A DNA stretch of 64,000 nt, taken from the NCBI RefSeq assembly GCF_058153355.1, contig NZ_CM177019.1. The stretch is one strand, 5' to 3'. Shown piece by piece: positions 27,544 to 44,878 of this stretch. The notes below the pieces were generated by a model, which was not told the origin of the DNA, made no database searches, and saw only the letters and a list, made by a program, of their open reading frames with translations. The position numbers and the translations under genes were made by a program. Position 1 is the stretch's first letter, and each line of letters opens with the position of its first letter.

Positions 27544-29112
27544 TTAGCGTGCCGGCTGAGTAGTCGTGGAAGACTGCTCAAAGTGATAGCGACCGGTTTT
27601 CAGGCTGCTTGGGCCGAGGCGTGCAAACTTGAACATTAAGAACAATTCTGCCACCAGGAACAGGGTATACAGGCCGCAAATCAGCACCATCGAGAAGATG
27701 AGATCGCCTGCGGTCAGTGACGAGTTCGCTACAGCTGTCGGCAGCACTTCACCGATAGCCCAAGGCTGGCGACCATATTCAGCCACGAACCAGCCCGCTT
27801 CTACAGCAATCCACGGCAACGGAATACCGTACAATGCGGCGCGCAGCAGCCATTTTTTCTCGCCAATACGGTTGCGGATGACACTCCAGAAAGAGAGCGC
27901 GATGATTGCCAGCAGCAGGAAGCCACACGCCACCATGATACGGAACGCGAAGTACAGCGGCGCTACACGTGGAATGGAGTCTTTGGTTGCCTGTTGAATC
28001 TGCGCTTCAGTCGCATCCGCCACGTTTGGCGTATAGCGTTTCAGCAGCAGACCGTAACCGAGGTCTTTCTTCATGCTATTGAACTGGTCACGAACCGCCT
28101 GGTCGGTAGAACCAGAACGCAGTTGCTCGAGCAGAGAGTACGCCTTCATCCCGTTACGGATGCGTTCTTCATGCTGCACCATCAGCTCTTTCAGGCCGAT
28201 AACCGGAGTATCCACGGAACGCGTGGCGATAATGCCCAGTGCGTAAGGGATTTGGATCGCAAATTTGTTCGTCTGCTCATCCTGATCAGGAATACCGAAC
28301 AGAGTAAAGGCAGCAGGCGCAGGTTGCGTTTCCCACTCGGCTTCAATAGCAGCCAGTTTGGTTTTCTGCACGTCGCCCATTTCATAACCAGATTCATCAC
28401 CCAGAACAATAACAGACAGAACGGCAGCCATACCGAAGCTGGCAGCGATAGCAAAGGAGCGTTTAGCGAAGGCGAAGTCACGACCTTTCAGCATATACCA
28501 TGCGCTGATACCGAGGATGAACATCGCGCCAGTCACATAACCAGACGCTACCGTGTGAACGAATTTCACCTGAGCAACCGGGTTAAGCACCAGCTCGGAG
28601 AAGCTCACCATCTCCATACGCATAGTTTCAAAGTTGAAATCGGATGCGATTGGGTTTTGCATCCAGCCGTTCGCAACCAGAATCCACAGTGCGGACAGGT
28701 TTGAACCAAGCGCCACCAGCCAGGTGACACACATATGCTGAACTTTACCCAGACGATCCCAACCGAAGAAGAACAGACCTACAAAGGTGGATTCGAGGAA
28801 GAAGGCCATCAGACCTTCGATTGCCAGCGGCGCACCGAAGATATCCCCTACATAGTGGGAATAGTAAGACCAGTTAGTCCCGAACTGGAACTCCATGGTC
28901 AGACCGGTTGCCACACCCAGAGCGAAGTTGATACCAAACAACTTGCCCCAGAACTTGGTCATATCTTTATAAATCTGTTTGCCGGAAAGGACGTAGACCG
29001 TTTCCATAATGGCCAGCAGGAACGCCATACCGAGCGTCAGTGGCACAAAAAGGAAGTGGTACATCGCGGTCAAGGCAAACTGTAAGCGCGACAGTTCGAC
29101 TATATCTAACAT
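27544..29112 (-). CDS. cydA: cytochrome bd-I ubiquinol oxidase subunit I
   Basis: ORF 27544..29115; second Met ([28 protein letters not shown]...) gives 522 aa. Confidence 0.95.
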
Positions 29113-29115
29113 CAT

Positions 29116-29916
29116 GACTCCTTGCTCATCGCATGAAGACTCCGAGAGTGAACCCCGTTAGAAAGGGTCACACGCATGCCCCAATACAAAATTATTTGCT
29201 CGCCTCTATCGTTGCCATTTCATCAAAAGAGGAAAAGACAATGATAAAAAAGTTACAAACATGTTAATGAATAAACCAAATTGATCCCGTAATTATATTA
29301 CGCCGCAAAATCCTTACAATAAACAGGTTTTTATTGAGCAAATTTGCATTTTTCGACAGTGATCAATTTATAGCGAAATTGTCACGATCTCACCAATTTG
29401 ATCTACGACAATTTATCGTGTTTTGCAGATTTTTTTCAAGAATTAAAAATTGATTTATATCAAAACCAACCAAATGTGTTAATTATGTATAAACCATAGA
29501 TCATTGGTGATTTTATTGTTAATTTATTGTGAAATGTTTATGCAACACAATTATTACAATGAAAAGGTATAGATAAAAAACCAGTGTTTTATTTAACAGA
29601 ACCGCCTTATCCACTTTTTATAATACCAATTGATTAGAGTAGCCAATTTGTTGCTATTTTACATAACATATTTTTATCAAAGTTAATTGATTGTTGCCTT
29701 TATGAGCATCGCCGTAAGACCGCCATGTTATTGTTTCATTTGTAATAATCACCAATAAGTATCGATGAGAGAGATATCGCTTAACAGAGGCGACTATGTC
29801 TGCATGAACACAGGCAACTTTCGCCTGATAAACGAAAAATGAGCGATTTTTGCAAGTTAGTTTTTCTATAGCCGGGTACGCTGAGCGCCTCGCTTGATTA
29901 CAATGAGGTTGCTGCC
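29116..29916. promoter_or_regulatory. long AT-rich cydAB control region
   Basis: 801-bp AT-rich non-coding region upstream of cydA with multiple TTGAT-type half-sites. Confidence 0.6.
29450..29463. promoter_or_regulatory. FNR-type binding site
   Basis: Perfect TTGAT-TTAT-ATCAA palindrome about 340 bp upstream of cydA start. Confidence 0.6.
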
Positions 29917-30861
29917 ATGGGTCTTGATAATATAGGTTCTGTTGTCAATCGCTTCTCTGGTTGGCCATCAAATGATCCTCTAAAAACAGATAACGAATCA
30001 ATGACATCACCCGTGACTGTGCAGGTAATAAAGTTGATTGCCGCCATCCTTGACCCACATCGGATAGTCGTTGGTATCGATACACTTTACACAACGCAGC
30101 GCAAAACATTTACCTCAGAGGGTCAACAGCTCATTGAATCAGCATTGCAAACACTTCATGTGATGAATTTAAATAACCTGGAAACAAATCTCGATGAGGA
30201 AGGTCACTATCTGGCTTTTGGATATAACGTTGACACTCCTGACAGAATAACCGTTTCTGCTTATAATGAAAAAAAACCTTTCTGTTATGGCCAATGTCTT
30301 TTAATACAGGATGAAGAACCAGATTTATTTAACCTGGTAAAAATTAAAACCTTTGAAGCCAGGCATAATTATGTTTCTAAATTGATGAGCGATCCGGAAT
30401 TTATGTTTAAATTCAGTTATAGCGCCCAACAAAATAGATTAGAACCTCATCTTCTGGTTCCCACTTATTTCCCTCTGAAAACAAACCAACCGGTTACGCT
30501 AGAGGATGTACTGATACTTTATCGTTTCTTTAAAATGAATGGCGATTTTAATATATTAACATCAGATGAATACATGAGTATCATGACACCTCTGATGAAG
30601 TGTGAGCGTAGTGTCCACGACCATAACAGGTATGTGACGGGCAAAGATGCTCTTCTTCTGGACAATCCTCCGTCTGGTAACCAGATATATTTCCATATTT
30701 CCCCTGACGAATCAGCAACACTTGTCCTTTATTTTTCAGACAATAACCTTGAATCCTTCGTCTTTGAAAATGATATTCCGAGCCAGTATCGACATTTCAA
30801 AATGTTTACCAATTTAGCACTAGTTATTGATCAGTTAACCGACGCCAATCAAATACTTTAA
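29917..30861 (+). CDS. hypothetical protein, 314 aa, no family recognised
   Basis: Long ORF in AT-rich DNA with GAGG 9 nt upstream of ATG; no signal peptide, no TM segment and no motif I recognise; true start may be an internal Met. Confidence 0.5.
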   Translation: MGLDNIGSVVNRFSGWPSNDPLKTDNESMTSPVTVQVIKLIAAILDPHRIVVGIDTLYTTQRKTFTSEGQQLIESALQTLHVMNLNNLETNLDEEGHYLAFGYNVDTPDRITVSAYNEKKPFCYGQCLLIQDEEPDLFNLVKIKTFEARHNYVSKLMSDPEFMFKFSYSAQQNRLEPHLLVPTYFPLKTNQPVTLEDVLILYRFFKMNGDFNILTSDEYMSIMTPLMKCERSVHDHNRYVTGKDALLLDNPPSGNQIYFHISPDESATLVLYFSDNNLESFVFENDIPSQYRHFKMFTNLALVIDQLTDANQIL

Positions 30862-30942
30862 TTTTCTATATATCCCCTATGGTAAATATTACTAAACAAT
30901 ACCTGGGGATTAATTTTTATTACTCACGGAAAGATTTAAATA

Positions 30943-31365
30943 ATGATACCATCTCAGATTTCTTTCAATACTCTTCCTGTCAATGCAACATACGCTTCAG
31001 AGACAACAGTTGACACACAAAAATTCTCTGACATCCTCTACTCTGCGGGGTGTTCCCTAAAGGATCTGGCTTATCTGAGCAGATGTCTGGCATCAATACA
31101 TCCGACTATCGCCAAAAACATTTATGAAACAGAAAATCTCAGCGTTCAAAAATTACTGCATATTGATTGCCGTAGTACAAATGAAATCAAGATAAATATC
31201 TTTTTTGGTCAGCAACGAGAAGGATTAATTGAAATTAGTTCTGACACAGTCATTTTTTCGATACTGTCTTCATTGATTGACTCAGCTATTTCTGAACATC
31301 GACATCAAATCACCGTTAACGATTCAAATAATTCTGAACTATTTTATGAGGATTATACTGATTAA
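30943..31365 (+). CDS. hypothetical protein, 140 aa, acidic C-terminus
   Basis: ORF 81 bp downstream of the 314-aa ORF, same strand and same AT-rich composition; ends ...ELFYEDYTD. Confidence 0.45.
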   Translation: MIPSQISFNTLPVNATYASETTVDTQKFSDILYSAGCSLKDLAYLSRCLASIHPTIAKNIYETENLSVQKLLHIDCRSTNEIKINIFFGQQREGLIEISSDTVIFSILSSLIDSAISEHRHQITVNDSNNSELFYEDYTD

Positions 31366-31908
31366 ATCCACTCTGTGCGAACCTGTCCTGCATTTATGCC
31401 AGAAGTATTAGAATCTTTGCTTAACGTTACTCATACAGTAGCACCTTCATGTACTTCTCTTTTTTACGAAAAATCAAAAGAGCTAACAAAGGTCATTCTT
31501 CGCATGGATCATTAATTATTTGTTATTTTCAACATTATTTTTACATTAAGCATATATGAATTGCAGTGAAATTCGACTTAACTTTTATGAAATGCATTTA
31601 CTCATGGCTAAAAAATCTCCCCAAAATGCAAATTAGAAGTTGATCACAATTATCTCAATACATCAAATCAAGTTAATTTTAAAAATTTAACATTCATGAC
31701 ATTAGTTGACGTAACACGCTGAATTAAAATGAGAATTTAAAAACACACTTTAAACAATCATTTCCCGAAAGACATTTTGAAAATAGATCAATTGCAACAT
31801 TACGGTCAGATAAAGACACTCCTCTGATATTAAACCTGTGCCGTTATGAACGGCCATAAATACGACGTGTGTAACTTAATTTACTCTCTGTCTTACAAAG
31901 GATTACCC

Positions 31909-32358
31909 ATGAAGAAAGCAACACTTGTGATTGGCGTTATTGGCGCGGACTGCCATGCAGTAGGCAATAAAGTTCTGGACCGCGTTTTTAGCAACCATGA
32001 CTTCAGAGTCATTAATCTGGGCGTAATGGTCAGCCAGGACGAATATATTGATGCTGCCATTGAAACTGGCGCTGACGCGATTGTCGTCTCCTCTATCTAT
32101 GGGCATGGCGATATCGATTGTCTGGGCATGCGCGAACGCTGCATCGAGCGTGGGCTGGGTAACATCATGCTCTATGTGGGCGGTAACCTGGTGGTCGGAA
32201 AACATGACTTCGCTGACGTGGAAACCAAGTTCAAAGAGATGGGATTTGATCGCGTCTTTTCCCCAAGTCATGACTTAGAAGATGTTTGTCAGCTGATGGC
32301 CCACGATATCACCCAACGTCATGACGTTGATACTCGCATTCTTGAAGAGGCAATCTGA
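31909..32358 (+). CDS. glutamate mutase sigma (S) subunit, B12-binding
   Basis: ORF 31846..32358; start at ATG 31909 (AAGGA 8 nt upstream); [24 protein letters not shown]... with the DxHxxG cobalamin-binding motif (DCHAVG). Confidence 0.85.
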
Positions 32359-33746
32359 TGCAAATCGTCTCTGTCGATATTGGATCGACGTGGACCAAAG
32401 CAGCCCTCTTCACCCGGGAGGGGGACGCGTTAACGTTGGTTAACCACGTTCTGACCCCAACCACCACCCATCATCTGGCGAAAGGGTTTTTCTCCAGCCT
32501 GGACCAGGTGTTAAACGTAGATGATGCCCTCCCCCTGTTAAACAGTGGTGAGGTTGCATTGAAGTATTCCTCCTCTGCCGAAGGTGGGCTGGCGGTTGCC
32601 GCAATGGGATTGGTGCCTTCTATCACCCTGGAAACCGCGAAAGTAACCGCTCACTCTGCGGGTGCTAAAATTGCGCAATATTACGCCTACAAGCTGAACC
32701 GCCGTGATATCCAGGCACTGGAAGAAACGCAGCCCGATATTCTCTTGTTCACCGGCGGCACCGACGGCGGAGAAGAAAGCTACGGACTGAATAACGCCCG
32801 TGTGCTGGCAGAATCCAAACTCGACTGCGCCATTATTTATGCCGGAAACCGGGATATTCAGGATAAGGTGCAGGAGATCCTCGGGCATAAAGACCTGACC
32901 ATCGTCGACAACGTTCTGCCCGATCTTGACCATCCGAACCCTTTAGCTGCACGCCAGGCTATCTGCGACATATTCCTTAAACGCATCGTTAAAGGGAAAG
33001 GGCTGGATGTCATTGTTGATAAAACAGGCGAAGAACCAATGCCGACACCATGGACGGTCTTTGAACTGGTTAAGGCAATCAGTAACGTCGATCACAGCTG
33101 GAAAGAGTTCATGCTGATCGACATGGGCGGCGCAACCACCGATGTCTATTCCGCCTGTGCCAACACGCTCTCGCCCGACACTGTTTTACATGGCGTACCG
33201 GAACCCTTCGTAAAACGGACGGTGGAAGGCGATCTGGGAATGCGCGTCTCGGCAATGGTTGTTGGTGAAAGTGCGAAAGAGTTAGTCAGTGTGAATTTTG
33301 CTCAGCAACCCGCACAGTTGGACGCTTTTTATCATTACCTCCGTCATCTAGTCGCTCATCCCGACTACTTACCCGCGAATGCAGATGAAAAATATTTCGA
33401 TACCGTCCTGGCCGGACTGTGTGTGGGTTATGCCACCGAAAGACATGCGGGCACCAAAAAAGAGGTCTGCACCTGCGTCGGCAATGTCGATTTACAGATG
33501 GGACGTGATCTGACAACCGTGCGTAAAGTCGTGGGTTCCGGCGGATGGCTCTCACGTGCCAGTCAGTTCGATATGCATCACTGGTTGAAATACCGCGAGT
33601 TAAACGACGACGGTAAACGCATTCTCTTACCGACCGAATTTGAATATTACCGCGATTACCGGGGGCTATTACCACTGCTGGCAAACGTCGCCAGAGTCGA
33701 TCCGCTGGCCGCCGCGCGCACCAGTATTCAATGCTTAACCCTATAA
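32358..33746 (+). CDS. glutamate mutase L component (ASKHA-fold putative reactivase/chaperone)
   Basis: 462-aa ORF with TGATG overlap to the S-subunit gene; N-terminal [18 protein letters not shown] actin-like ATPase motif; sits between S and E genes. Confidence 0.75.
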   Translation: MQIVSVDIGSTWTKAALFTREGDALTLVNHVLTPTTTHHLAKGFFSSLDQVLNVDDALPLLNSGEVALKYSSSAEGGLAVAAMGLVPSITLETAKVTAHSAGAKIAQYYAYKLNRRDIQALEETQPDILLFTGGTDGGEESYGLNNARVLAESKLDCAIIYAGNRDIQDKVQEILGHKDLTIVDNVLPDLDHPNPLAARQAICDIFLKRIVKGKGLDVIVDKTGEEPMPTPWTVFELVKAISNVDHSWKEFMLIDMGGATTDVYSACANTLSPDTVLHGVPEPFVKRTVEGDLGMRVSAMVVGESAKELVSVNFAQQPAQLDAFYHYLRHLVAHPDYLPANADEKYFDTVLAGLCVGYATERHAGTKKEVCTCVGNVDLQMGRDLTTVRKVVGSGGWLSRASQFDMHHWLKYRELNDDGKRILLPTEFEYYRDYRGLLPLLANVARVDPLAAARTSIQCLTL

Positions 33747-33764
33747 CAATTAAGGCTGCAATCA

Positions 33765-35210
33765 ATGGAACTTCGAAATAAGAAATTAACCCATGACGAA
33801 TTCATGACCGAGCGGCAACAGGTATTGAAAACCTGGGAAACCGGCAAGGATGTTGAAAACTTTGAAGATGGCGTTAAATACCAACAAACCATTCCTGAGC
33901 ATAAACGCTTCTCTCATGCCCTGCTGAAAGCAGACAAGGAAGGTAAAACCCTTAGCCAACCGCGCGCAGGCGTGGCGCTGATGGACGAACACATCGAACT
34001 ACTGAAAACACTACAAGAAGAGTGCGATCTGCTGCCGAGCACTATCGATGCATATACCCGTCTGAATCGGTACGAAGAAGCGGCTGTAGGGATTAAAAAA
34101 TCCATCGAAGCCAGAACCTCTAAACTGAACGGTTTACCGGTAGTTAACCACGGCGTCGCAGCTTGCCGTCGCCTCACCGAAACTCTGCAAAAACCGCTAC
34201 AGATCCGCCACGGCACGCCAGATGCGCGTCTGCTGGCTGAAATCTCGATGGCCAGCGGCTTTACCAGTTATGAAGGCGGCGGCATTTCCTACAATATTCC
34301 GTATGCCAAGCGCGTAACGCTGGAAAAATCGATCCGCGACTGGCAGTACTGCGACCGTTTAATGGGGATGTATGAAGAACACGGGATCCGCATCAACCGC
34401 GAACCGTTTGGCCCACTAACGGGTACGCTGATCCCGCCGTTTATCTCGCACTCTATCGCGATAATCGAAGGCTTGCTGGCACTGGAACAGGGTGTGAAAT
34501 CTATTACCGTTGGTTATGGACAGGTCGGCAGCCTGACGCAGGATGTCGCGGCGATCCAGTCTCTGCGTGAACTTGCACACGAATACTTTCAGAGCTATGG
34601 CTATACCGACTATGAATTAAGTACCGTATTTCACCAGTGGATGGGCGGCTTTCCGGAGGACGAATCGAAAGCGTTCGCCATTATCTCCTGGGGTGCTGCC
34701 GTCGCGGGGATGTCTGGTGCTACCAAAGTCATCACCAAAAGTCCGCACGAAGCCTGGGGCATCCCGACTGCTGCTGCCAACATTCAGGGGCTAAAAGCCT
34801 CCCGCCAGATGCTCAACATGGTCAACGAGCAGAAATTCCCGCCGTGCCCGGCGGTTGAACTGGAAATTGAACTGATTAAGAGCGAGGTTCGCGCTGTACT
34901 GAACAAAGTGTTCGAACTGGGTAATGGTGATATTGCGCGCGGTACGGTGCTGGCATTTGAAGCGGGCGTACTGGATGTACCGTTTGCCCCAGCCGCCTGC
35001 AACGCAGGCAAAATTCTTCCGGTCCGTGACAACACCGGCGCGATACGCGTACTGGAAGCCGGAGCCGTTCCATTGCCAAAAGATATTCTCGACCTCCACC
35101 ACGATTACGTTGCTGAACGCGCACGCTTTGAAGGACGCCAACCGACATTCCAGATGGTTGTAGATGACATCAATGCTGTATCCCACAGTAAATTAATAGG
35201 AAGACCATAA
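33765..35210 (+). CDS. glutamate mutase epsilon (E) catalytic subunit
   Basis: 481-aa ORF; size and position (S-L-E-methylaspartase order) match the clostridial glutamate mutase operon as recalled. Confidence 0.8.
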   Translation: MELRNKKLTHDEFMTERQQVLKTWETGKDVENFEDGVKYQQTIPEHKRFSHALLKADKEGKTLSQPRAGVALMDEHIELLKTLQEECDLLPSTIDAYTRLNRYEEAAVGIKKSIEARTSKLNGLPVVNHGVAACRRLTETLQKPLQIRHGTPDARLLAEISMASGFTSYEGGGISYNIPYAKRVTLEKSIRDWQYCDRLMGMYEEHGIRINREPFGPLTGTLIPPFISHSIAIIEGLLALEQGVKSITVGYGQVGSLTQDVAAIQSLRELAHEYFQSYGYTDYELSTVFHQWMGGFPEDESKAFAIISWGAAVAGMSGATKVITKSPHEAWGIPTAAANIQGLKASRQMLNMVNEQKFPPCPAVELEIELIKSEVRAVLNKVFELGNGDIARGTVLAFEAGVLDVPFAPAACNAGKILPVRDNTGAIRVLEAGAVPLPKDILDLHHDYVAERARFEGRQPTFQMVVDDINAVSHSKLIGRP

Positions 35211-36451
35211 TGAAAATAAAACAGGCCCTTTTCACCGCTGGCTACTCTTCATTCTATTTCGATGACCAGCAGGCGATAAAAAACGGAGCGGGTCACGACG
35301 GCTTTTTTTATACCGGAGAGCCGGTAACACAGGGGTTTAACGCCGTACGTCAGGCCGGGGAGTGCGTTTCGGTTCAGTTGATTCTGGAAAACGGTGCGGT
35401 CGCCGTAGGCGACTGTGCTGCCGTACAGTATTCCGGGGCAGGCGGTCGCGATCCACTGTTCCTCGCAGAGCACTTTATTCCGTTCCTCAACGACCATATC
35501 AAGCCATTACTGGTAGGCCGCGATGTGGATGCTTTCCTGCCGAATGCCCGTTTCTTCGACAAATTGCGTATTGACGGAAACTTGCTGCATACCGCCGTAC
35601 GTTACGGATTATCACAGGCGCTGCTTGATGCTACCGCGCTGGCAACCGGCCGTCTAAAAACTGAAGTGGTCTGTGATGAATGGCAGTTGCCACGCGTGGC
35701 GGAATCCATTCCATTATTTGGTCAGAGCGGCGACGATCGATATATCGCTGTCGATAAGATGATCCTTAAGGGCATCGACGTGCTACCTCATGCGCTGATT
35801 AATAACGTCGAAGAGAAACTGGGCTTTAAAGGAGAAAAACTGCGCGAATATGTCCGTTGGCTATCCGATCGGATTCTAAGCAAACGCACCAGCGCACGCT
35901 ACCACCCTACCCTGCACATCGATGTATACGGCACTATTGGTCTGATCTTCGATATGGATCCGCTTCGCTGTGCGCAATACATCGCCAGTCTGGAAAAAGA
36001 GGCGCAAGGCCTGCCGCTCTACATTGAGGGGCCGGTCGATGCCGGTAACAAGCCCGATCAAATTCGCCTGCTGACCGCGATTACCAAAGAGCTGACGCGC
36101 CTCGGTTCCGGCGTGAAAATTGTGGCCGATGAATGGTGTAACACCTACCAGGATATTGTTGATTTCACTGATGCCGCCAGTTGCCACATGGTGCAAATCA
36201 AAACCCCGGATCTGGGCAGTATTCACAACATCGTCGATGCAGTTCTTTATTGCAACAGCCACAGCATGGAAGCGTACCAGGGCGGCACCTGCAATGAAAC
36301 CGATGTCAGCGCCCGCACGTGTGTCCACGTCGCCCTTGCCGCTCGCCCTATGCGTATGCTGGTAAAACCGGGGATGGGCTTTGACGAAGGCCTCGATATC
36401 GTCTTCAACGAAATGAATCGTACTATCGCGCTGTTGCAGGCTAAGGATTAA
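35210..36451 (+). CDS. mal: 3-methylaspartate ammonia-lyase (methylaspartase)
   Basis: 413-aa ORF MKIKQALFTAGYSSFYFDDQQAIKNGAGHDGFFYTGEPVT...; strong resemblance to recalled clostridial/Citrobacter methylaspartase (same length; conserved HMVQIKTPDLG, NETN and KPGMG blocks); TAATG overlap with E subunit. Confidence 0.9.
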   Translation: MKIKQALFTAGYSSFYFDDQQAIKNGAGHDGFFYTGEPVTQGFNAVRQAGECVSVQLILENGAVAVGDCAAVQYSGAGGRDPLFLAEHFIPFLNDHIKPLLVGRDVDAFLPNARFFDKLRIDGNLLHTAVRYGLSQALLDATALATGRLKTEVVCDEWQLPRVAESIPLFGQSGDDRYIAVDKMILKGIDVLPHALINNVEEKLGFKGEKLREYVRWLSDRILSKRTSARYHPTLHIDVYGTIGLIFDMDPLRCAQYIASLEKEAQGLPLYIEGPVDAGNKPDQIRLLTAITKELTRLGSGVKIVADEWCNTYQDIVDFTDAASCHMVQIKTPDLGSIHNIVDAVLYCNSHSMEAYQGGTCNETDVSARTCVHVALAARPMRMLVKPGMGFDEGLDIVFNEMNRTIALLQAKD

Positions 36452-36454
36452 CAA

Positions 36455-37825
36455 ATGGCTCGTTCTTTTAAAGTCTTATCGCCAACGGCAATCCTCGGGT
36501 ATGGATTCCCGGAAGAGAGCTTCCGCAAAGCGATGGCAGAATCGCCCGATCTGATCGCCGTTGATGCAGGCTCTTCCGATCCTGGCCCCCACTACCTCGG
36601 GGCGGGCAAACCGTTTACCGATCGCGCAGGGGTCAAACGCGATCTACGCTATATGATCACCGCAGGCGTGCAAAATAATATACCGGTGGTGATCGGAACG
36701 GCCGGCGGTTCTGGTGCAGCTCCACACCTGGAGTGGTGCCGAGAAATAATTCATGAGATTGCCCGGGAAGAGCACCTCGCGTTCTCGATGGCGCTGATCC
36801 CGGCAGACGTTGACAAAGCCATCGTCCACCAGGCGCTGGATAACGGCAAAATCACGGCGCTGGATTTTGTCCCGCCGTTAACCCACGACGCGATTGACGA
36901 AAGTACGTATATCGTCGCGCAAATGGGCGTCGAACCCTTCCAGCAGGCGCTGAAAGAAGGCGCGCAAGTGGTGCTGGGCGGGCGCGCTTACGACCCGGCC
37001 TGCTTTGCTGCGCTACCGATCATGCAAGGCTTTGATGAAGGTCTGGCGCTGCATTGTGGGAAAATCCTTGAATGCGCGGCAATCGCCGCAACGCCCGGCT
37101 CAGGCTCTGACTGTGCGATGGGCATCATTGATGACAACGGCTTTACGCTGAAGACATTTAATCCGAAGCGTAAATTTACCGAAACGTCAGCGGCTGCACA
37201 CACACTGTATGAGAAATCCGATCCCTACTTCCTGCCAGGACCTGGCGGCGTGTTGAACCTGAAAGGTTGCACATTTAAAGCGATCAATGATGGCGAAGTT
37301 TACGTCAGCGGTTCTAAGCATGAAGAAACGCCCTATGCCCTGAAACTGGAAGGTGCGCGGCGGGTGGGTTTCCGCTGTTTGACCATCGCCGGAACGCGCG
37401 ACCCGATCATGATCGCCGGGATCGATAACATCATCGATGAAGTCAAAACCAGCGTTTCGCGTAATCTGTCCTTAGACGATGACAGCATTCGCATCAATTT
37501 CCACCTGTACGGCAAAAACGGGGTGATGGGTAACCATGAACCGATGCAAACTGCCGGGCATGAGCTGGGGATTGTCCTTGATGTAGTTGCACCGACCCAG
37601 GAAATTGCCAACAGCGTTTGCTCGCTGGTGCGCTCTACCATGCTGCACTACGGCTATGAAAACCGCATCGCTACCGCAGGCAACCTGGCGTTCCCGTTCT
37701 CCCCTTCTGATATCCAGGGCGGGCCGGTATACGAATTTTCCATATATCACCTGATTGAAGCCAACGACGCTCTGCGTTTTGATTTCCATATTGAACAGGT
37801 GACGCCAGAAGGAGTTCAGGCATGA
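36455..37825 (+). CDS. conserved protein of unknown function, DUF1446 (AtuA-like), 456 aa
   Basis: ORF starts 4 nt after methylaspartase stop; family assignment from memory of AtuA-like proteins, not from a search. Confidence 0.6.
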   Translation: MARSFKVLSPTAILGYGFPEESFRKAMAESPDLIAVDAGSSDPGPHYLGAGKPFTDRAGVKRDLRYMITAGVQNNIPVVIGTAGGSGAAPHLEWCREIIHEIAREEHLAFSMALIPADVDKAIVHQALDNGKITALDFVPPLTHDAIDESTYIVAQMGVEPFQQALKEGAQVVLGGRAYDPACFAALPIMQGFDEGLALHCGKILECAAIAATPGSGSDCAMGIIDDNGFTLKTFNPKRKFTETSAAAHTLYEKSDPYFLPGPGGVLNLKGCTFKAINDGEVYVSGSKHEETPYALKLEGARRVGFRCLTIAGTRDPIMIAGIDNIIDEVKTSVSRNLSLDDDSIRINFHLYGKNGVMGNHEPMQTAGHELGIVLDVVAPTQEIANSVCSLVRSTMLHYGYENRIATAGNLAFPFSPSDIQGGPVYEFSIYHLIEANDALRFDFHIEQVTPEGVQA

Positions 37826-38139
37826 AACAGTCAATTGTCTCACTGGCGCAAGTCATTCGTTCGAAAAATGCCGGACCTTACGAACTGGTTTTAGATATTT
37901 TATTTAAAACGAAAGAAAACTATGAGCGAGTAAAATCATCAGGGCAATTAACCCCAGAACTGATTGCGCGCTTATATCATGTTGAACCTGACTTTATTCA
38001 TCGTATTGTCTGGTTTGATCCTTCTAACGCAGTAAAAATTGTCATGCCACGAGATATTATCTCCGGGAATGTAGGTGACAATGATGTCTATGGCGCACAG
38101 CAACATGCACCTTTATTAAATATGAGTTTCGATTTGTAA
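37822..38139 (+). CDS. small conserved protein, DUF4387-like partner, 105 aa
   Basis: ATGA overlap with the preceding ORF; AT-rich; DUF1446/DUF4387 pairing is from memory. Confidence 0.5.
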   Translation: MKQSIVSLAQVIRSKNAGPYELVLDILFKTKENYERVKSSGQLTPELIARLYHVEPDFIHRIVWFDPSNAVKIVMPRDIISGNVGDNDVYGAQQHAPLLNMSFDL

Positions 38140-38225
38140 AAATCCGAACACTTTTAGCCAACTGACATCCCGTCACTTATTGCAGCTCAACACTTCAGCT
38201 ATTTGTAAGGTTGTTATAGCAGGTA

Positions 38226-38251
38226 GATGCCTGAATCTCTATTCAGGCATC
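38226..38251 (+). other. perfect 11-bp-stem hairpin between the DUF4387-like gene and the transporter
   Basis: gatgcctgaat-ctct-attcaggcatc; followed by pyrimidine-rich sequence but no clean T-run. Confidence 0.4.
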
Positions 38252-38299
38252 CACTTCTCCTGATTCTGATTTATCGCCGTGCACCTGATGGAGGAAAAA

Positions 38300-39580
38300 A
38301 TGAAGAAAATAAGTTTAACCACGATGATTCTTTTGGCGCTGGTACTTGGAATGATTATCGGCGTAGTGCTCAATAACACTGCTTCACCGGAAACAGCAAA
38401 ACTCTATGCGCAAGAAATATCGATATTCACGACGATTTTCTTACGACTGATAAAAATGATTATCGCTCCGTTAGTGGTCTCTACCCTGGTGGTAGGTATT
38501 GCTAAAATGGGCGATGCCAAAGCCCTTGGTCGTATTTTTTCTAAAACACTCTTTTTATTTATTTGCGCCTCATTGCTGTCAATTGCCTTAGGCTTGATAA
38601 CGGTAAATTTCTTCATGCCAGGCACAGGAATTAATTTTGTTGCACACGGTGCCGAAACCACCGGAGTGGTCGCGTCAGAACCCTTTACACTAAAAGTATT
38701 TATTTCGCATGCTTTCCCCACCAGCATTGTCGATGCCATGGCGCACAATGAAATTTTGCAAATCGTGGTGTTCTCAATTTTCCTCGGCTGTAGCCTGACG
38801 GCGATTGGTGAGAAAGGCAGCGCCATCGTTCACGCCTTAGATTCGCTGGCACATGCCATGTTAAAGCTCACTGGCTACGTCATGCTCTTCGCTCCCCTGA
38901 CCGTATTCGCCGCTATTTCAGCATTGATTGCTGAACGAGGACTGGCAGTTATGGTGAGCGCCGGGATCTTTATGGGTGAATTTTATTTCACCATGTTATT
39001 ACTTTGGGTGCTGCTTATCGGTCTGGCCATCGTTTATGTCGGCCCCTGCATCAGACGCCTGACCCGCGCCCTTTCAGAACCCGCCCTGCTGGCATTTACC
39101 ACATCCAGTTCTGAAGCTGCTTTTCCGGGAACGCTTGAAAAACTGGAGCAATTTGGCGTTTCCCCCAAAATTGCCAGCTTTGTCTTACCCATTGGCTACT
39201 CATTTAATCTCGTTGGATCAATGGCCTACTGCTCCTTCGCCACAGTTTTCATCGCCCAGGCCTGCAATATCCATTTATCCATCGGTGAGCAAATCACCAT
39301 GCTGTTGATCCTGATGTTGACCTCGAAAGGAATGGCTGGCGTACCACGCGCCTCAATGGTGGTTATCGCCGCCACGCTCAACCAGTTCAATATTCCGGAA
39401 GCGGGGCTGATCTTGCTGATGGGCGTTGATCCGTTCCTTGATATGGGGCGTTCCGCGACAAACGTCATGAGCAACGCAATGGGCGCTGCGATGGTGAGTC
39501 GGTGGGAAGGCGAACATTTCGGCGAGGGTTGTCGGGGTAAAGCATTAAAACCCAATGAATCGAACGTTGCTCTGCCCTGA
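38300..39580 (+). CDS. dicarboxylate/amino acid:cation symporter (DAACS)-family transporter
   Basis: ORF 38279..39580; start at ATG 38300 (GGAGG 5 nt upstream); polytopic membrane protein resembling GltP/DctA-type symporters. Confidence 0.7.
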   Translation: MKKISLTTMILLALVLGMIIGVVLNNTASPETAKLYAQEISIFTTIFLRLIKMIIAPLVVSTLVVGIAKMGDAKALGRIFSKTLFLFICASLLSIALGLITVNFFMPGTGINFVAHGAETTGVVASEPFTLKVFISHAFPTSIVDAMAHNEILQIVVFSIFLGCSLTAIGEKGSAIVHALDSLAHAMLKLTGYVMLFAPLTVFAAISALIAERGLAVMVSAGIFMGEFYFTMLLLWVLLIGLAIVYVGPCIRRLTRALSEPALLAFTTSSSEAAFPGTLEKLEQFGVSPKIASFVLPIGYSFNLVGSMAYCSFATVFIAQACNIHLSIGEQITMLLILMLTSKGMAGVPRASMVVIAATLNQFNIPEAGLILLMGVDPFLDMGRSATNVMSNAMGAAMVSRWEGEHFGEGCRGKALKPNESNVALP

Positions 39581-39687
39581 GGGAGATCTTAAGCAATCAG
39601 AAGCCAATGACTACGCATTTTTATAAGCCGGATCATGAAGTTAGACGGCAATTAAGTAACACTAACGTTTAAGGTGAAAAGTGAAAT

Positions 39688-41340
39688 ATGTCCAAACCAT
39701 TTATCTGGCAAGAACCGTTTCTACAAAATAAAGACGGTACAGAATATACATTAATTAGCGATCAACATATTACAGTAACGGAATTAGACGGCGAAGAAGT
39801 AATAAAAATCGCTCCTGAAGCATTAACGCTGCTTGCCCGGCAGGCATTTTATGAAGCCTCTTTTTTCTTACGTTCCGCTCATTTGCAACAGGTCGCCAGC
39901 ATTCTTAACGATCCGCAGGCCAGCAGTAATGATAAATACGTTGCGTTGCAGTTATTACGTAATGCTGAAGTCTCAGCAAAAGGGGTATTACCCAACTGTC
40001 AGGATACCGGCACCGCAACTATTGTTGCCAGTAAAGGGCAACAGATATGGACCGGAGGCAACGACGCCGAAGCCTTAAGCAAAGGCATTTACACCACTTT
40101 TCAGGAAAATAATTTGCGCTTTTCACAAAATGCGCCGCTGGATATGTATACCGAAGTCAATACGTACACCAATCTACCGGCGCAGATTGATATCAGCGCC
40201 GTCGCTGGTGATGAGTACCATTTTCTCTGTATTAATAAAGGGGGCGGCTCCGCCAATAAAGCCGCACTTTATCAGGAAACCAAATCCTTATTGCAACCAG
40301 AAAAACTGACCGCATTTTTAATCGAAAAAATGAAATCGCTGGGCACCGCTGCCTGCCCGCCTTACCACATCGCCTTTGTCGTCGGAGGGCTTTCAGCCGA
40401 TCAAACCTTAAAAGTTGCCAAGCTGGCCTCTACGAAATATTACGACAATTTGCCCACCAGCGGAAACGAGCAGGGACAAGCATTCCGTGATATTGAGCTG
40501 GAAAAAGCGTTGCTCGAAGCCAGTCAGCAATTTGGTATTGGTGCGCAATTTGGGGGTAAATATTTCGCTCATGATATTCGCGTCATTCGTCTGCCGCGTC
40601 ACGGTGGCTCCTGCCCGATAGCTATGGCGCTCTCCTGTTCTGCCGATCGCAATATCAAAGCAAAAATTAACAAGCATGGTATCTGGCTGGAAAAACTCGA
40701 ACACAATCCGGGGCAATATATTCCAGCCTCACTGCGGGAAGAAAATCACGCGCAACATGTACAGCTGGATCTAAACCGTCCGTTGCGTGACGTGATGCAG
40801 GATCTCGCCAGATTACCGGTAGGCACCCGCGTGTCGTTAAGTGGTCCCATCGTAGTGGCGCGCGATATCGCCCACGCCAAAATAAAAGCGCGGCTGGATA
40901 GCGGCGAATCGATGCCGGATTATCTGAAGCATCATATTGTCTATTACGCTGGCCCGGCGAAAACACCGGAGAACATGGCCTGCGGTTCACTGGGTCCAAC
41001 CACGGGCGGTCGAATGGACGGTTATGTCGAAACCTTCCAGGCGGCTGGCGGCAGTCTGGTAATGTTATCGAAAGGTAACCGCAGCCAGCAGGTCACCGAT
41101 GCCTGTCACAAACATGGCGGCTTCAATCTGGGAAGTATTGGCGGTGCAGCTGCGTTACTGGCGCAAGAATATGTCAAAAGTCTGCGTTGCCTGGAATACC
41201 CGGAGCTGGGTATGGAAGCGGTGTGGATGATGGAAGTGGAAAATCTGCCCGCATTCATCCTGGTCGATGATAAAGGCAATAATTTCTTTAGTCAGTTTGA
41301 GCAGCAACACCGCTGCGCCAGTTGCCCTGCGGGACATTAA
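39688..41340 (+). CDS. fumD: class I (Fe-S) fumarate hydratase paralog, probable mesaconase/fumarase
   Basis: 550-aa ORF colinear with E. coli FumA/FumB as recalled ([70 protein letters not shown]); symbol fumD is from memory of the O157:H7 mesaconase. Confidence 0.8.
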
Positions 41341-41349
41341 GGAAAATGA

Positions 41350-41952
41350 ATGGAAGCGCGAATTTCAACTGAACGGCATGTGCAGCGCCAGCAGAAATTG
41401 AAGGAACAGGTCGATACGCGCGTCGCGGCGGCGATAGAGAAAAAAGGGATCTTGATTGTTTTCACCGGCAACGGCAAAGGGAAATCCACTGCCGCGTTTG
41501 GTACTGTGACGCGCGCGGTGGGTCATGGCAAAACGGTGGGGGTTGCGCAGTACATCAAGGGGCAATGGGACAACGGCGAATACAACCTTCTCCAGCCGCT
41601 GGGGGTTGAGTTTCATATTATGGGAACCGGTTTTACCTGGGAGACTCAGAACCGGCAAGCGGATATCGACGCGGCGAAAGAGGTCTGGTCGGAAAGCAAA
41701 CGGATGCTGGCTGACAAGCGTTACGACTTAGTGGTGCTTGATGAGCTGACCTATATGCTGGCTTACCATTATCTGGACACCGAAGAAGTGATCACTTCTC
41801 TGCAAAACCGCCCGGCACAACAAAGTGTCATTGTCACCGGACGCAGTTGCCACAGTCAGATATTAAAAATGGCGGATACGGTCAGCGAAATCCGCCCCGT
41901 CAAACATGCTTTTGATAACGGCATTCAGGCGCAGCCGGGTATCGACTGGTAA
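41350..41952 (+). CDS. cob(I)alamin adenosyltransferase (CobA/BtuR family)
   Basis: 200-aa ORF with P-loop GNGKGKST and close resemblance to E. coli BtuR as recalled (VFTGNGKGK.TAAFGT.TRAVGHGK, LDELTYM, ELRPVKHAF). Confidence 0.85.
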   Translation: MEARISTERHVQRQQKLKEQVDTRVAAAIEKKGILIVFTGNGKGKSTAAFGTVTRAVGHGKTVGVAQYIKGQWDNGEYNLLQPLGVEFHIMGTGFTWETQNRQADIDAAKEVWSESKRMLADKRYDLVVLDELTYMLAYHYLDTEEVITSLQNRPAQQSVIVTGRSCHSQILKMADTVSEIRPVKHAFDNGIQAQPGIDW

Positions 41953-41985
41953 TAACTGCGCCTGGCATCCCGCCAGGCGCAGGTT

Positions 41986-42891
41986 TTACATCTCCTGCGG
42001 TACGACCGATTTCGCCAGCAACCATTCACGAAATTGCTGCAAGTGCGGCGAGTCAGACTTCTCTTCCTGCCACGTCATAATAAAACGATTACCGGTACGA
42101 ATAGGCACATCACAGGGAATCACCATATCGCCACTATCCAAATCATGTTGAATAGCGAACCGTGGTAACAGCGCCACGCCGAGATTAGAGCGCACGGCGG
42201 CAATCAGCATTGAAAGCAAATCGAAACGTGGTCCGTTATTGACCAGCGGACTGCTAACGCCAGATAAAGCAAACCACTCTTCCCAGCCAGTAATACGGGT
42301 GCTTTGATGCAGAAGTGGTAACTCAGTAAGCAGTTCTGCCACTGAAAGTTTTTGATCGGACATTGCAAGCAAACTGCCGCTGCATACCGGCAAAATCTCC
42401 TCTTCAAAGAGATATTCTACTTCCGCCCAGGGCGCGCAAAAATTTTCGCGCATAATGACAGCATCGTACTCCCGATTAAGAAAATCGCCGTTATTAGCTA
42501 AAGAATGAATATTAACAATAATATCGGGATGTAACTTTGTGAATTCATGTAAATTTGGGATTAACCAGTGGGTACTAAACGTAGGATTAACGGCAAGTTC
42601 AATAACCTGAACCGTAGGCTGCCAGGTCATAATCGTATTGGTATCGCGTTCCAGCTTATTTAATGTTTCTTTTACTATCCCCAGGTAATACTTCCCTGCA
42701 TCATTAAGAAAAATGCGTTTTTTAGAGTGTGAAAATAGCGGAGTATGTAAAAATTCCTCCAGCGCACTTACTTGTCTGAATACAGCACTTTGGGTTAACG
42801 CTAACTCCTCTGCCGCTCTGGTATAGCTTTCATGACGTGCGACGACCTCAAAAGTCACCAGCAGCTCCGTTTTAGGTATTTTTCCTCGCAT
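41986..42891 (-). CDS. LysR-family transcriptional regulator
   Basis: ORF 41986..42921; start set at internal Met (MRGKIPKTELLVTFEVVARHESYTRAAEELALTQSAVFRQVSALEE, LysR HTH); 42921 is an alternative start; convergent with the adenosyltransferase gene, divergent from the RtcB-like gene. Confidence 0.8.
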   Translation of the reverse strand: MRGKIPKTELLVTFEVVARHESYTRAAEELALTQSAVFRQVSALEEFLHTPLFSHSKKRIFLNDAGKYYLGIVKETLNKLERDTNTIMTWQPTVQVIELAVNPTFSTHWLIPNLHEFTKLHPDIIVNIHSLANNGDFLNREYDAVIMRENFCAPWAEVEYLFEEEILPVCSGSLLAMSDQKLSVAELLTELPLLHQSTRITGWEEWFALSGVSSPLVNNGPRFDLLSMLIAAVRSNLGVALLPRFAIQHDLDSGDMVIPCDVPIRTGNRFIMTWQEEKSDSPHLQQFREWLLAKSVVPQEM

Positions 42892-43480
42892 AATGCCGTC
42901 CGTGAAAAAATAACAATTCAAAAATTATTTTATAAAAAACAGTAGCACTAATGAATATCATAATTCAAATAAACAAACCAGTCAGCTATATGTCTAACCA
43001 GGAAAATAAAGTGACAATAATCCTAAAACAGGAATTTCACCTCAGTTATCCGCATGCAATACTTTAAAGCTATTATTGCAAGAATATTATTCATATACAT
43101 GAATATACTCTAAATAAGTCAAGTTGCAGGAAGGGAACAAATAATGAATTTCCAGAAGCTTACATAAGTAAGTGACCTGGGTGAGCGAACATCGATGCAG
43201 CACATGCAACTTGAATTATGACAAGTATACAATGATAAATTTATATACCCTATGTTATATATTATCTATGTCCGGTTAGATTGAATGAGTCATAGCCTTA
43301 AAAGACTTCACAAAAGATAATTCCTCTTTAACAATAAGCCAGATTTACCACTTGTAAAACTTGCTATCGCCACATACACTACGCGCGTTTTCTTTCCCTT
43401 TTGCTGGCTGCTGACCGGAAAGACAAAATTACCCTCGCAATACAGGGGGTTGATTAACGTCTATATTTCAGGACAGCGTT

Positions 43481-44878
43481 ATGCATCATCTTTCAAGGCT
43501 TGATAAAGCCTTTCTGCGCAAAGGGATCCAACTTTCCCGCGCCAACAATATTGTTTCATTATGTCGTCCATCAGGAGCCAGTGCCCGCGTACTGCTGCCG
43601 GACGAACTGCCGCTGGAAGAAAAAGCAGTAACACAACTGCTTGATTTTGCAGAAGTGAAGCTACCAGACCACCCAGGTTATGTGCGCCAGACGTGCGCGA
43701 CGCCAGATTTTCATCCCGGCAATGGCGTCCCCGTTGGCGCGGTGGTGGCCTCAACGCCGGATTTAGTCATTCCCGCCGCCATCGGCACCGATATTTCTTG
43801 TGGCATGCGGCTGCTGACGACCGGATTAACACTTGAGCAAGCCGAAGCGCATAAAGACGTCATCGCTCAGCGGTTAACGCAAGTGCTACTGCAAAATGAG
43901 CGCGATGTTCCGTTATCCGCACAGGCGTTCACCGCGCTTTTTGATGGCGGACCGGCAGATTGCGTGTCGACCTTGCCATCAGCAGGTCTCTGGACACGCA
44001 CGAATATCCCCCGAATGGTACAAGAGATTGACCGCTGCATTGGGCTTAACGAGCATAACAGTCATTCGCGTTATGCCCCACCCGCCCTGCTGGCAACGGA
44101 CCGCGCATTACTCCGCGATCCTTGTCTTGGTACGCCGGGTTCAGGTAATCATTTTATTGAACTTCAGGTCGTTGATAGCGTGGTTGATCGCCATGTAGCC
44201 TGGCAACAAGGGCTGAAAACAGGCGATATTGTGGTGATGATCCACAGTGGATCGCGAGATGTTGGCTTTTACGTCGGAAGACGCTGGATGGATCGCGCCC
44301 GTGCTGAATGGCCCACCGGACATAAACATCCACAAAGCGGGTTATATGGTCTGGCAGGCGGACTGGCGGAGGAATATCTACAAGCGATAGGAATGGCGGC
44401 GCGTTACGCGTGGTTAAATCGCGTGACAATTGCCGAAATGGTGCGCGTATGTCTTGCCAATCTCTTTCATCAGGACAATTCGCATCTGGTGGTGGATGTG
44501 CCACATAACATCATCCTTCGCGAGCATGAAATGAATATTCATCGCAAAGGCGCAACACCGGCACGAGTGGGCAATCTGGCGTTAATCCCCGGTTCAATGG
44601 GCGATTATTCGTGGCTTGCGGTAGGTTGCGGCAACCCGGAGTGGCTGTGGTCTTGCAGTCACGGAGCAGGACGCAGCCAGCGTCGGCAGGCCATGCGCTC
44701 ACGCGCGACTGAAGAGTCAACGTTGCCGTGGCAATGCGTCACATTGCGCGAAGAACGGCGTATTGAAGAAGCGCCAGCTGCTTATAAAGATATTGGTCCG
44801 GTTATCGAAGCCCAACAAGAGGCCGGATTAATTCATCCAGCGGTTAGATTCCGACCGTGGTTAACGTTTAAAGCATAA
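43481..44878 (+). CDS. RtcB-family RNA ligase paralog, 465 aa
   Basis: Conserved RtcB blocks aligned by eye to E. coli RtcB: IPAAIGTDISCGM, GSGNHFIE, MIHSGSRDVG, IPGSMGDYS, CSHGAGR, AAYKDI. Confidence 0.8.
   Translation: MHHLSRLDKAFLRKGIQLSRANNIVSLCRPSGASARVLLPDELPLEEKAVTQLLDFAEVKLPDHPGYVRQTCATPDFHPGNGVPVGAVVASTPDLVIPAAIGTDISCGMRLLTTGLTLEQAEAHKDVIAQRLTQVLLQNERDVPLSAQAFTALFDGGPADCVSTLPSAGLWTRTNIPRMVQEIDRCIGLNEHNSHSRYAPPALLATDRALLRDPCLGTPGSGNHFIELQVVDSVVDRHVAWQQGLKTGDIVVMIHSGSRDVGFYVGRRWMDRARAEWPTGHKHPQSGLYGLAGGLAEEYLQAIGMAARYAWLNRVTIAEMVRVCLANLFHQDNSHLVVDVPHNIILREHEMNIHRKGATPARVGNLALIPGSMGDYSWLAVGCGNPEWLWSCSHGAGRSQRRQAMRSRATEESTLPWQCVTLREERRIEEAPAAYKDIGPVIEAQQEAGLIHPAVRFRPWLTFKA

Follow-up and report, generated by a model that had tools for sequence, protein, structure and literature searches.

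A gene pair of the AtuA and DUF4387 families behind methylaspartase in an Escherichia genome is very probably the citramalate lyase CmlAB

Introduction

The cluster studied here was described earlier in E. coli O157:H7 by Kronen and Berg (2015; PMC4682846). They characterized FumD biochemically as a mesaconase but found no enzyme for the cleavage of citramalate, which they reported as a missing step; no activity was obtained with citrate lyase, isocitrate lyase, or methylisocitrate lyase. They also noted a DUF1446 gene downstream of mal that is often mis-annotated as methylaspartase, and that the clostridial glm-mal cluster contains CitDEF-type genes. More recently, a preprint of January 2026 (bioRxiv 10.64898/2026.01.16.699985) used cmlAB of Raoultella planticola, which the Berg laboratory had provided, and the enzyme cleaved citramalate to pyruvate and acetate in vivo. 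To grow on mesaconate, the evolved strain required Cml together with a mesaconase, and isotope labelling confirmed that acetyl-CoA was made from mesaconate carbon. Acs was up-regulated in the evolved host, and the Raoultella enzyme was functional in E. coli hosts lacking glutamate mutase.

We analyzed a stretch of 64,000 nucleotides of contig NZ_CM177019.1 (assembly GCF_058153355.1), hereafter the window, from an Escherichia genome. Two ORFs of 456 and 105 aa follow mal in this window, and we refer to them as cmlA and cmlB. We assessed their junctions, their family membership, their neighbours in the window and in 80 related loci, and the reaction that they may catalyze.

Results

Layout of the two ORFs

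The mal ORF (35210..36451) ends with a TAA stop at 36449-36451. Because a 3-nt spacer (CAA) separates this stop from the ATG at 36455, the 456-aa ORF begins at the fourth base past it. The 456-aa ORF extends from 36455 to 37825, with a TGA stop at 37823-37825, and the 105-aa ORF starts with the ATG at 37822, so that the two overlap in ATGA. An AAGGA motif resembling a Shine-Dalgarno sequence (36443..36447, + strand) was read within the 3' end of mal, 7 nt upstream of the ATG of cmlA, and an AGGAG ribosome-binding motif for cmlB (37810..37814, + strand) was read within the 3' end of cmlA. That is, mal, cmlA, and cmlB have the same orientation and near-zero spacing, and each ribosome-binding motif lies within the preceding gene. 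A terminator scan gave nothing of note upstream of 41956-41982. In the spacer between cmlB and the transporter gene, the hairpin at 38226-38251 is locally perfect; the whole spacer, compared with shuffles, folded no better (z -1.2). The original prediction had placed the 456-aa ORF 4 nt past the methylaspartase stop, with an ATGA overlap to the 105-aa ORF, and had described the pair as tightly coupled to mal. Our coordinates agree with this layout, and the 3-nt spacer and the ATGA junction bear out the tight coupling; co-translation, also proposed there, is a prediction from it.

Identity of the pair

The 456-aa protein matched Pfam AtuA (PF07287, formerly DUF1446) over residues 63-394 with an E-value of 7.4e-19. 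This match is weak (68 bits), so that the protein represents a divergent branch of the AtuA family. The 105-aa protein matched Pfam DUF4387 (PF14330) over residues 6-101 with an E-value of 2.9e-39; the DUF1446/DUF4387 membership proposed earlier was thus borne out for both ORFs. NCBIfam contained no family for either ORF.

A sequence search of the PDB was far more informative. The 456-aa protein aligned to 9erq_A and 9evf_A from residues 1-456 to residues 1-456 (E 6.6e-293), and the 105-aa protein aligned to 9erq_B over its full length (E 5.2e-57). The depositors named the chains of 9ERQ and 9EVF "Citramalate lyase, subunit A (cmlA)" and "subunit B (cmlB)", and the titles read "Citramalate lyase - ADP - pyruvate complex" for the entry released on 2025-10-08 and "Citramalate lyase - AMPPNP - citramalate complex" for that released on 2025-10-22. 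CmlA and CmlB were co-deposited within single PDB entries. CmlA of the window is identical to the PDB chain at 419 of 456 positions (91.9%; 37 substitutions) and CmlB at 88 of 104 (84.6%; 16 substitutions). The 37 differences in CmlA all lie outside the positions that are invariant in the alignment of the orthologous clade. The AF2 model of CmlA (pLDDT 96) superimposed on 9evf_A with a TM score of 0.98, and the fold had no further solved relative.

We examined conservation over 63 family members, down to 30% identity. It was densest in the N-terminal alpha/beta half, and the most strongly conserved positions lay in motifs around D37-x-G-S-x-D42-x-G-P, G81-T-A-G-G-S-G87, G176-R-x-x-D180, H200-x-G-K-I-L-E-C207, and H249-x-x-Y-E253.

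Surrounding operon

The two genes are part of a ten-gene unit on the + strand that includes glmS, glmL, glmE, mal, a transporter gene, fumD, and cobA. The gene glmS (31909..32358, +) encodes the B12-binding subunit S of methylaspartate (glutamate) mutase (NF002612, E 6e-75; RefSeq annotation of an E. coli locus of 98.9% identity). Its mechanical ORF begins at 31846 (170 aa); we placed the start at the Met at 31909, in agreement with the NF002612 match, which begins at residue 22, and with the RefSeq start. The next genes are glmL (32358..33746, +), for the accessory (reactivating) protein of the mutase (TIGR01319, E 1.6e-265; NF040745, E 9.7e-152), glmE (33765..35210, +), for its subunit E (TIGR01503, E 2e-260), and mal (+), for methylaspartate ammonia-lyase (TIGR01502, E 2.4e-163). 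These are followed by cmlA (36455..37825, +), encoding the large, AtuA/DUF1446-family subunit of citramalate lyase, and cmlB (37822..38139, +), encoding the small DUF4387 subunit, both as named from the Pfam and PDB matches given above.

Downstream of cmlB lies a gene for a dicarboxylate/amino acid:cation symporter of the DAACS type, similar to GltP and DctA (38300..39580, +; mechanical ORF from the GTG at 38279), assigned by RefSeq annotation and by NF002461 and NF008440, both below the curated cut-off. This symporter, named GltP in PMC4682846, is a probable glutamate importer. The gene fumD (39688..41340, +) encodes a class I fumarase/mesaconase that forms (S)-citramalate from mesaconate (NF011921, score 1276 against a cut-off of 1060). 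The last gene encodes a CobA/CobO-type cob(I)yrinic acid a,c-diamide adenosyltransferase (41350..41952, +; NF004637, E 2.2e-88; TIGR00708, E 2.7e-73), which serves adenosylcobalamin supply. A terminator-like hairpin of 11 pairs, 9 of them G-C (41956..41982, +), was the top site of the scan and marks the operon end. A convergent gene for a LysR-family regulator follows (41986..42921, - strand; GcvA-like, NF008352, E 1.4e-65, below the cut-off), and a regulator of this family beside the cluster is conserved in the Enterobacterales loci. An Rfam scan of 29000-44000 gave no family match and no cobalamin riboswitch. Upstream of glmS, a segment of 35% GC with two orphan ORFs flanks the cluster. E. 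coli strain R32_14_1F has, immediately beside the cluster, a histidine-utilisation (hut) operon as a source of glutamate; this operon is absent from the window.

Comparison of 80 loci

We scanned genomes with an alignment of CmlA and obtained 80 loci (56-98% identity), in which neighbours were identified by tblastn with the proteins of the window. The loci come from about ten phyla and include Enterobacterales, Rhodocyclales, Riflebacteria, Spirochaetes, Aminicenantes, Holophagae, Lentisphaerae, Desulfobacterota, and Firmicutes. They are the best matches to CmlA, and about 30 of them are closely related enterics; therefore, the linkage described here applies to the orthologous clade rather than to the AtuA family at large. 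Since full-length homologues of 56-98% identity occur in conserved order in 80 genomes of many phyla, the two ORFs are real genes rather than chance ORFs.

Mal was encoded immediately upstream of CmlA in 69 of the 74 loci with sufficient DNA, and CmlB immediately downstream in 78 of 78 loci. GlmS, GlmE, and Mal were present together in 55 of 59 loci and a class I fumarase in 43 of 67. The -4 (ATGA) overlap of cmlA and cmlB was the most frequent junction class (39/78 loci). A recurrent linkage to methylaspartase and glutamate mutase genes, put forward as a check in the original prediction, was therefore recovered. The statement that DUF1446 and DUF4387 occur as a pair held in the 78 loci, in paralogues, and in fused forms. 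In paralogues of 44-50% identity, the DUF4387 partner is kept and mal is not; these lie in unrelated contexts on short contigs with no informative neighbours. In fused members of the family, CmlB aligns to residues 503-604 of a 608-aa protein (P0148, E 3e-25). At 50% identity, the AtuA/DUF4387 superfamily falls into 2,388 clusters; among its members are single-chain fusions and a form with a fused CoA-transferase-like domain.

In four to five of the 80 loci, including L033, L045, L067, and L079, cmlAB occurred without mal, indicating that the enzyme is not strictly tied to the methylaspartate pathway. L033, L067, and L079 have genes for helicase, protease, efflux, and glucanotransferase proteins as neighbours, and these are uninformative on function. 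Beside cmlAB in non-enteric clusters, a P-loop/AlaX-like gene is conserved. A classical citrate-type lyase encoded nearby was considered and rejected: tblastn with six E. coli K-12 queries (CitC, CitD, CitE, CitF, CitX, and CitG; E 1e-3) matched nothing in the window and nothing in the 80 loci.

The window matches E. coli chromosomes at about 99% identity; there, the cluster forms an island between cydA and sucD. Of 5426 complete E. coli genomes, 1135 (about one fifth) have the cluster, as do many strains of Citrobacter, Salmonella, Klebsiella, Morganella, Hafnia, and Yersinia. A metagenome-assembled genome of Raoultella sp. (L009) and other enterics carry glm-mal-cmlAB-fumD clusters in the same order.

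Discussion

Assignment of the pair and the predicted pathway

These comparisons make it highly probable that 36455-37825 codes for the large subunit CmlA and 37822-38139 for the small subunit CmlB of a citramalate lyase that works without CoA and without an acyl-carrier protein. Every feature of CmlAB that could be tested was found: both subunits have homologous counterparts, the clade-invariant residues are kept, and a context that supplies (S)-citramalate is present. Catalysis of (S)-citramalate cleavage to pyruvate and acetate, together with adenine nucleotide binding, is predicted for the pair of the window from its solved homologue. The function of the pair has already been assigned by others. 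The linkage to mal has likewise been in print since 2015 (PMC4682846), and CmlAB is the missing last enzyme of the pathway described there. The original prediction had started from the premise that the two families have no assigned biochemical function. Near-identical proteins have been deposited as CmlA and CmlB (9ERQ/9EVF) and the enzyme was used in the 2026 preprint; therefore, this premise is out of date. Among the example functions that it offered, the citramalate step stands; steps on methylaspartate or mesaconate and a role in enzyme maturation found no support. Our literature search found one preprint using the enzyme and no primary biochemical paper on CmlAB; the lyase reaction is accordingly taken from the names of the PDB entries and from that preprint's use.

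On this assignment, the operon can be read as follows. The DAACS transporter would import glutamate, which the B12-dependent GlmSE would convert to methylaspartate, with GlmL as the accessory protein and CobA as the supplier of adenosylcobalamin. Mal would deaminate methylaspartate to mesaconate, FumD would hydrate mesaconate to (S)-citramalate, and cleavage of citramalate between C2 and C3 by CmlAB would yield pyruvate and acetate. The two-subunit enzyme would then stand in for the six-gene clostridial citramalate lyase of the CitDEF/CitCXG type. With this last gap filled, the operon would cover the whole conversion of glutamate to pyruvate, acetate, and ammonia.

Possible role of the nucleotide

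Cleavage of the C2-C3 bond of citramalate needs a carbanion beside a free carboxylate, which classical lyases avoid by means of a thioester. As AMPPNP was used to trap the substrate complex, ATP may react; judging from the ligands in the entry titles, we consider its chemical involvement in the cleavage an evenly balanced question, and the nucleotide in the crystals could alternatively be structural or allosteric. The depositors of 9ERQ and 9EVF probably already know the role of ATP. If ATP reacts, it would most plausibly phosphorylate the C4 carboxylate of citramalate transiently, and in the retro-aldol cleavage the leaving C3 carbanion would be stabilised as the enolate of the resulting acyl phosphate. 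The phosphoryl group would then return to ADP, with net formation of acetate, or leave as acetyl phosphate. We propose only tentatively, and with more doubt than confidence, that C4 phosphorylation and cleavage of an acyl phosphate take place and that ATP-assisted cleavage of tertiary alcohols is shared by the whole AtuA/DUF4387 superfamily. If true, such superfamily-wide chemistry would assign the AtuA step of terpene catabolism.

Other readings of the locus

A variant of the best explanation is that CmlAB consumes ATP, i.e., that citramalate and ATP yield pyruvate, acetyl phosphate, and ADP, and that acetate kinase recovers the ATP. The substrate complex with non-hydrolysable AMPPNP and the product complex with ADP and pyruvate are consistent with this variant, and acetate and acetyl phosphate are both unnamed in the entry titles. 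However, the preprint gives pyruvate and acetate as the products, and free acetate is implied because Acs was up-regulated in its evolved host. In addition, no acetate kinase linked to cmlAB was found among the annotated genes of the 80 loci. We regard this ATP-consuming variant as rather unlikely.

Intact genes may also belong to a cryptic cluster, that is, a horizontally acquired island without a working pathway in this Escherichia lineage. E. coli lacks de novo B12 synthesis, no inducing condition is known, and E. coli ATCC 700728 showed neither expression of the cluster nor glutamate-dependent anaerobic growth under the conditions tried (PMC4682846). The restriction of the cluster to 1135 of 5426 complete genomes and the flanking 35% GC segment point in the same direction. 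In contrast, each of the ten genes has its full length and the junctions are conserved, every clade-invariant residue is kept in CmlA, and the cluster brings along an adenosyltransferase and a transporter, which speaks for functional selection. Such a silent cluster appears distinctly improbable to us.

The name "citramalate lyase" could also be a mis-assignment, with the pair acting on mesaconate or methylaspartate instead. Gene context alone cannot separate the steps after Mal, and many database records label homologues of CmlA as "3-methylaspartate ammonia-lyase". This label, however, was flagged as a mis-annotation in 2015 (PMC4682846). Moreover, the crystal complexes contain citramalate and pyruvate, Cml-dependent growth on mesaconate occurred only in the presence of mesaconase, and the two remaining steps are already served by Mal and FumD, so that we give this reading very little credence. 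We also tried and rejected the pair as a GlmL/MutL-type factor for maturation or reactivation of glutamate mutase or methylaspartase, a role to which we assign next to no probability: nucleotide binding and the position tightly behind mal would fit a chaperone, but the reactivase role is already held by GlmL, encoded by a separate gene (TIGR01319), cmlAB shows no strict co-occurrence with the mutase (neither glm nor mal accompanies it in L033, L045, L067, and L079), paralogues of 44-50% identity lie in unrelated contexts, and the Raoultella enzyme is active in E. coli hosts that have no glutamate mutase. Citramalate cleavage by CmlAB is the reading that we retain.

Significance

The practical value of the assignment today is re-annotation. 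RefSeq/PGAP, Pfam, and NCBIfam keep the old names "acyclic terpene utilization AtuA family protein" and "DUF4387 domain-containing protein"; because these are outdated and some records call CmlA a methylaspartase, re-annotation would be useful. CmlAB is, in addition, a compact two-gene tool for synthetic pathways and the first structure-backed entry into the large AtuA/DUF4387 family, and further value remains in the mechanistic role of the nucleotide.

Comparison with known systems

Two well-known enzymes are mechanistic analogues of the predicted reaction. Isocitrate lyase demonstrates that retro-aldol cleavage can release a carbanion in the alpha position of a free carboxylate, and in ATP-citrate lyase a carboxylate is activated as an acyl phosphate ahead of C-C cleavage. 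AtuA of the acyclic terpene utilisation pathway of Pseudomonas, the namesake of PF07287, belongs to the same Pfam family as CmlA. In the Atu pathway, acetate is released from the tertiary alcohol 3-hydroxy-3-isohexenylglutaryl-CoA, which is formally the same bond cleavage as that by CmlAB; to our knowledge, AtuA itself has no established function. The substrates differ in that CmlAB acts on a free C5 dicarboxylate, whereas the Atu intermediate is a CoA ester. The pair does not lie in an atu-type cluster, in which geranyl-CoA carboxylase subunits, an acyl-CoA dehydrogenase, and a hydratase would be encoded: it is surrounded by glm, mal, fumD, cobA, and the transporter gene, with no atu, carboxylase, or acyl-CoA genes nearby.

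A second AtuA-like pair, ThnQ/ThnS of anaerobic naphthalene degradation, is described in a 2025 review (PMC12016498) as acting in C-C cleavage at a tertiary hydroxylated carbon whose adjacent carbon bears a free carboxylate. By this description, it resembles CmlAB as a two-gene pair with a retro-aldol type of reaction, and this chemistry within the family supports the assignment of CmlAB. Its substrate, in contrast, is the CoA ester of a cyclohexane derivative, and its operon is beta-oxidation-like and contains a CoA-transferase.

The classical CitDEF lyase of Clostridium tetanomorphum (EC 4.1.3.22) has the same overall reaction and the same place in the pathway (PMC4682846, PMC8473912). It requires six genes, for the acyl-carrier protein CitD, the lyase CitE, the acyl-transferase CitF, and the activation proteins CitC, CitX, and CitG. 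CmlAB is unrelated to it in sequence, is encoded by two genes, has no carrier-protein thioester cycle, and binds a nucleotide. The nearest system by far is CmlAB of Raoultella planticola (9ERQ, 9EVF), which has the same two-subunit architecture and, with a TM score of 0.98, the fold predicted for the protein of the window. The two differ by 37 substitutions in CmlA and 16 in CmlB and in the host, which is Escherichia for the orthologue described here, itself known from its sequence.

A P-loop protein gene beside cmlAB

In 40 non-enterobacterial loci, we found that the citramalate lyase subunit genes cmlA and cmlB were adjoined by a gene for a conserved protein of ~317 aa, usually flanked by cmlB on one side and the class I fumarase gene on the other. 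The gene lies, for example, at positions 11694-12647 of L036, 11700-12647 of L057, 8907-9863 of L046 and 9001-9972 of L087. In L088 (9001-9987) and L089, the gene stood alone, ahead of a class I fumarase gene. The gene was present in no Enterobacterales locus and was not found in the window. The protein contains a Walker A motif (GAEGSGKST) as well as conserved His and Cys residues, and matched no Pfam family and no NCBIfam family. Its AF2 model resembles a fusion of two domains, a TsaE-like P-loop domain and a ThrRS/AlaX editing-like domain.

Fused members, database names and a probably mislabeled contig

Several members of the CmlA family carry the AtuA-like and DUF4387 parts in a single chain, namely P0152 (1096 aa), P0123 (735 aa) and P0148/P0167 (~610 aa). 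The extra C-terminal part of P0152 resembles a family III CoA-transferase, as judged from its sequence, and in P0123 a portion of the C-terminal half of CmlA appears to be repeated ahead of the DUF4387 segment. Several public records of CmlA homologues (P0002, P0060 and P0071) bear the name '3-methylaspartate ammonia-lyase'; this name had been flagged as an error by 2015 (PMC4682846), and the misnaming is spreading in public records to date.

A 7.3-kb contig labeled 'Collinsella sp. MAG' (JAIJJM010000101.1; L001) carries genes for Mal, CmlA, CmlB, the transporter, FumD and CobA, the products of which show 98-100% protein identity to those of the window. We consider it almost certain that this contig comes from Escherichia and was wrongly binned into an actinobacterial MAG.

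Sequences flanking and within the operon

Immediately 5' of glmS, the segment at 29000-31900 is AT-rich, at 34-37% GC versus ~52% in its surroundings, and is probably the edge of the acquired island. It contains ORFs of 314 aa (29917-30861) and 140 aa (30943-31365), each annotated in RefSeq as 'hypothetical protein' and neither matched in NCBIfam. A search of 29000-44000 against Rfam returned nothing at the gathering score, and no cobalamin riboswitch was found ahead of the B12-dependent operon.

Within the 160-nt spacer that separates cmlB from the transporter gene, there is a perfect 11-bp inverted repeat, GATGCCTGAAT-CTCT-ATTCAGGCATC, at 38226-38251. The repeat is not followed by a T-run, and the spacer as a whole folded no better than shuffles (z -1.2).

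On the far side of the operon, the window has a mere 560-nt spacer (42921-43481) at the place where E. coli R32_14_1F carries a histidine-utilization operon. In that strain, the operon (L081, 30863-38604) lies between the LysR regulator and RtcB-family genes and comprises hutU, hutI, hutG, a HutD-family gene, a HAL-family lyase gene and a permease gene. Glutamate is the end point of the histidine-utilization pathway.
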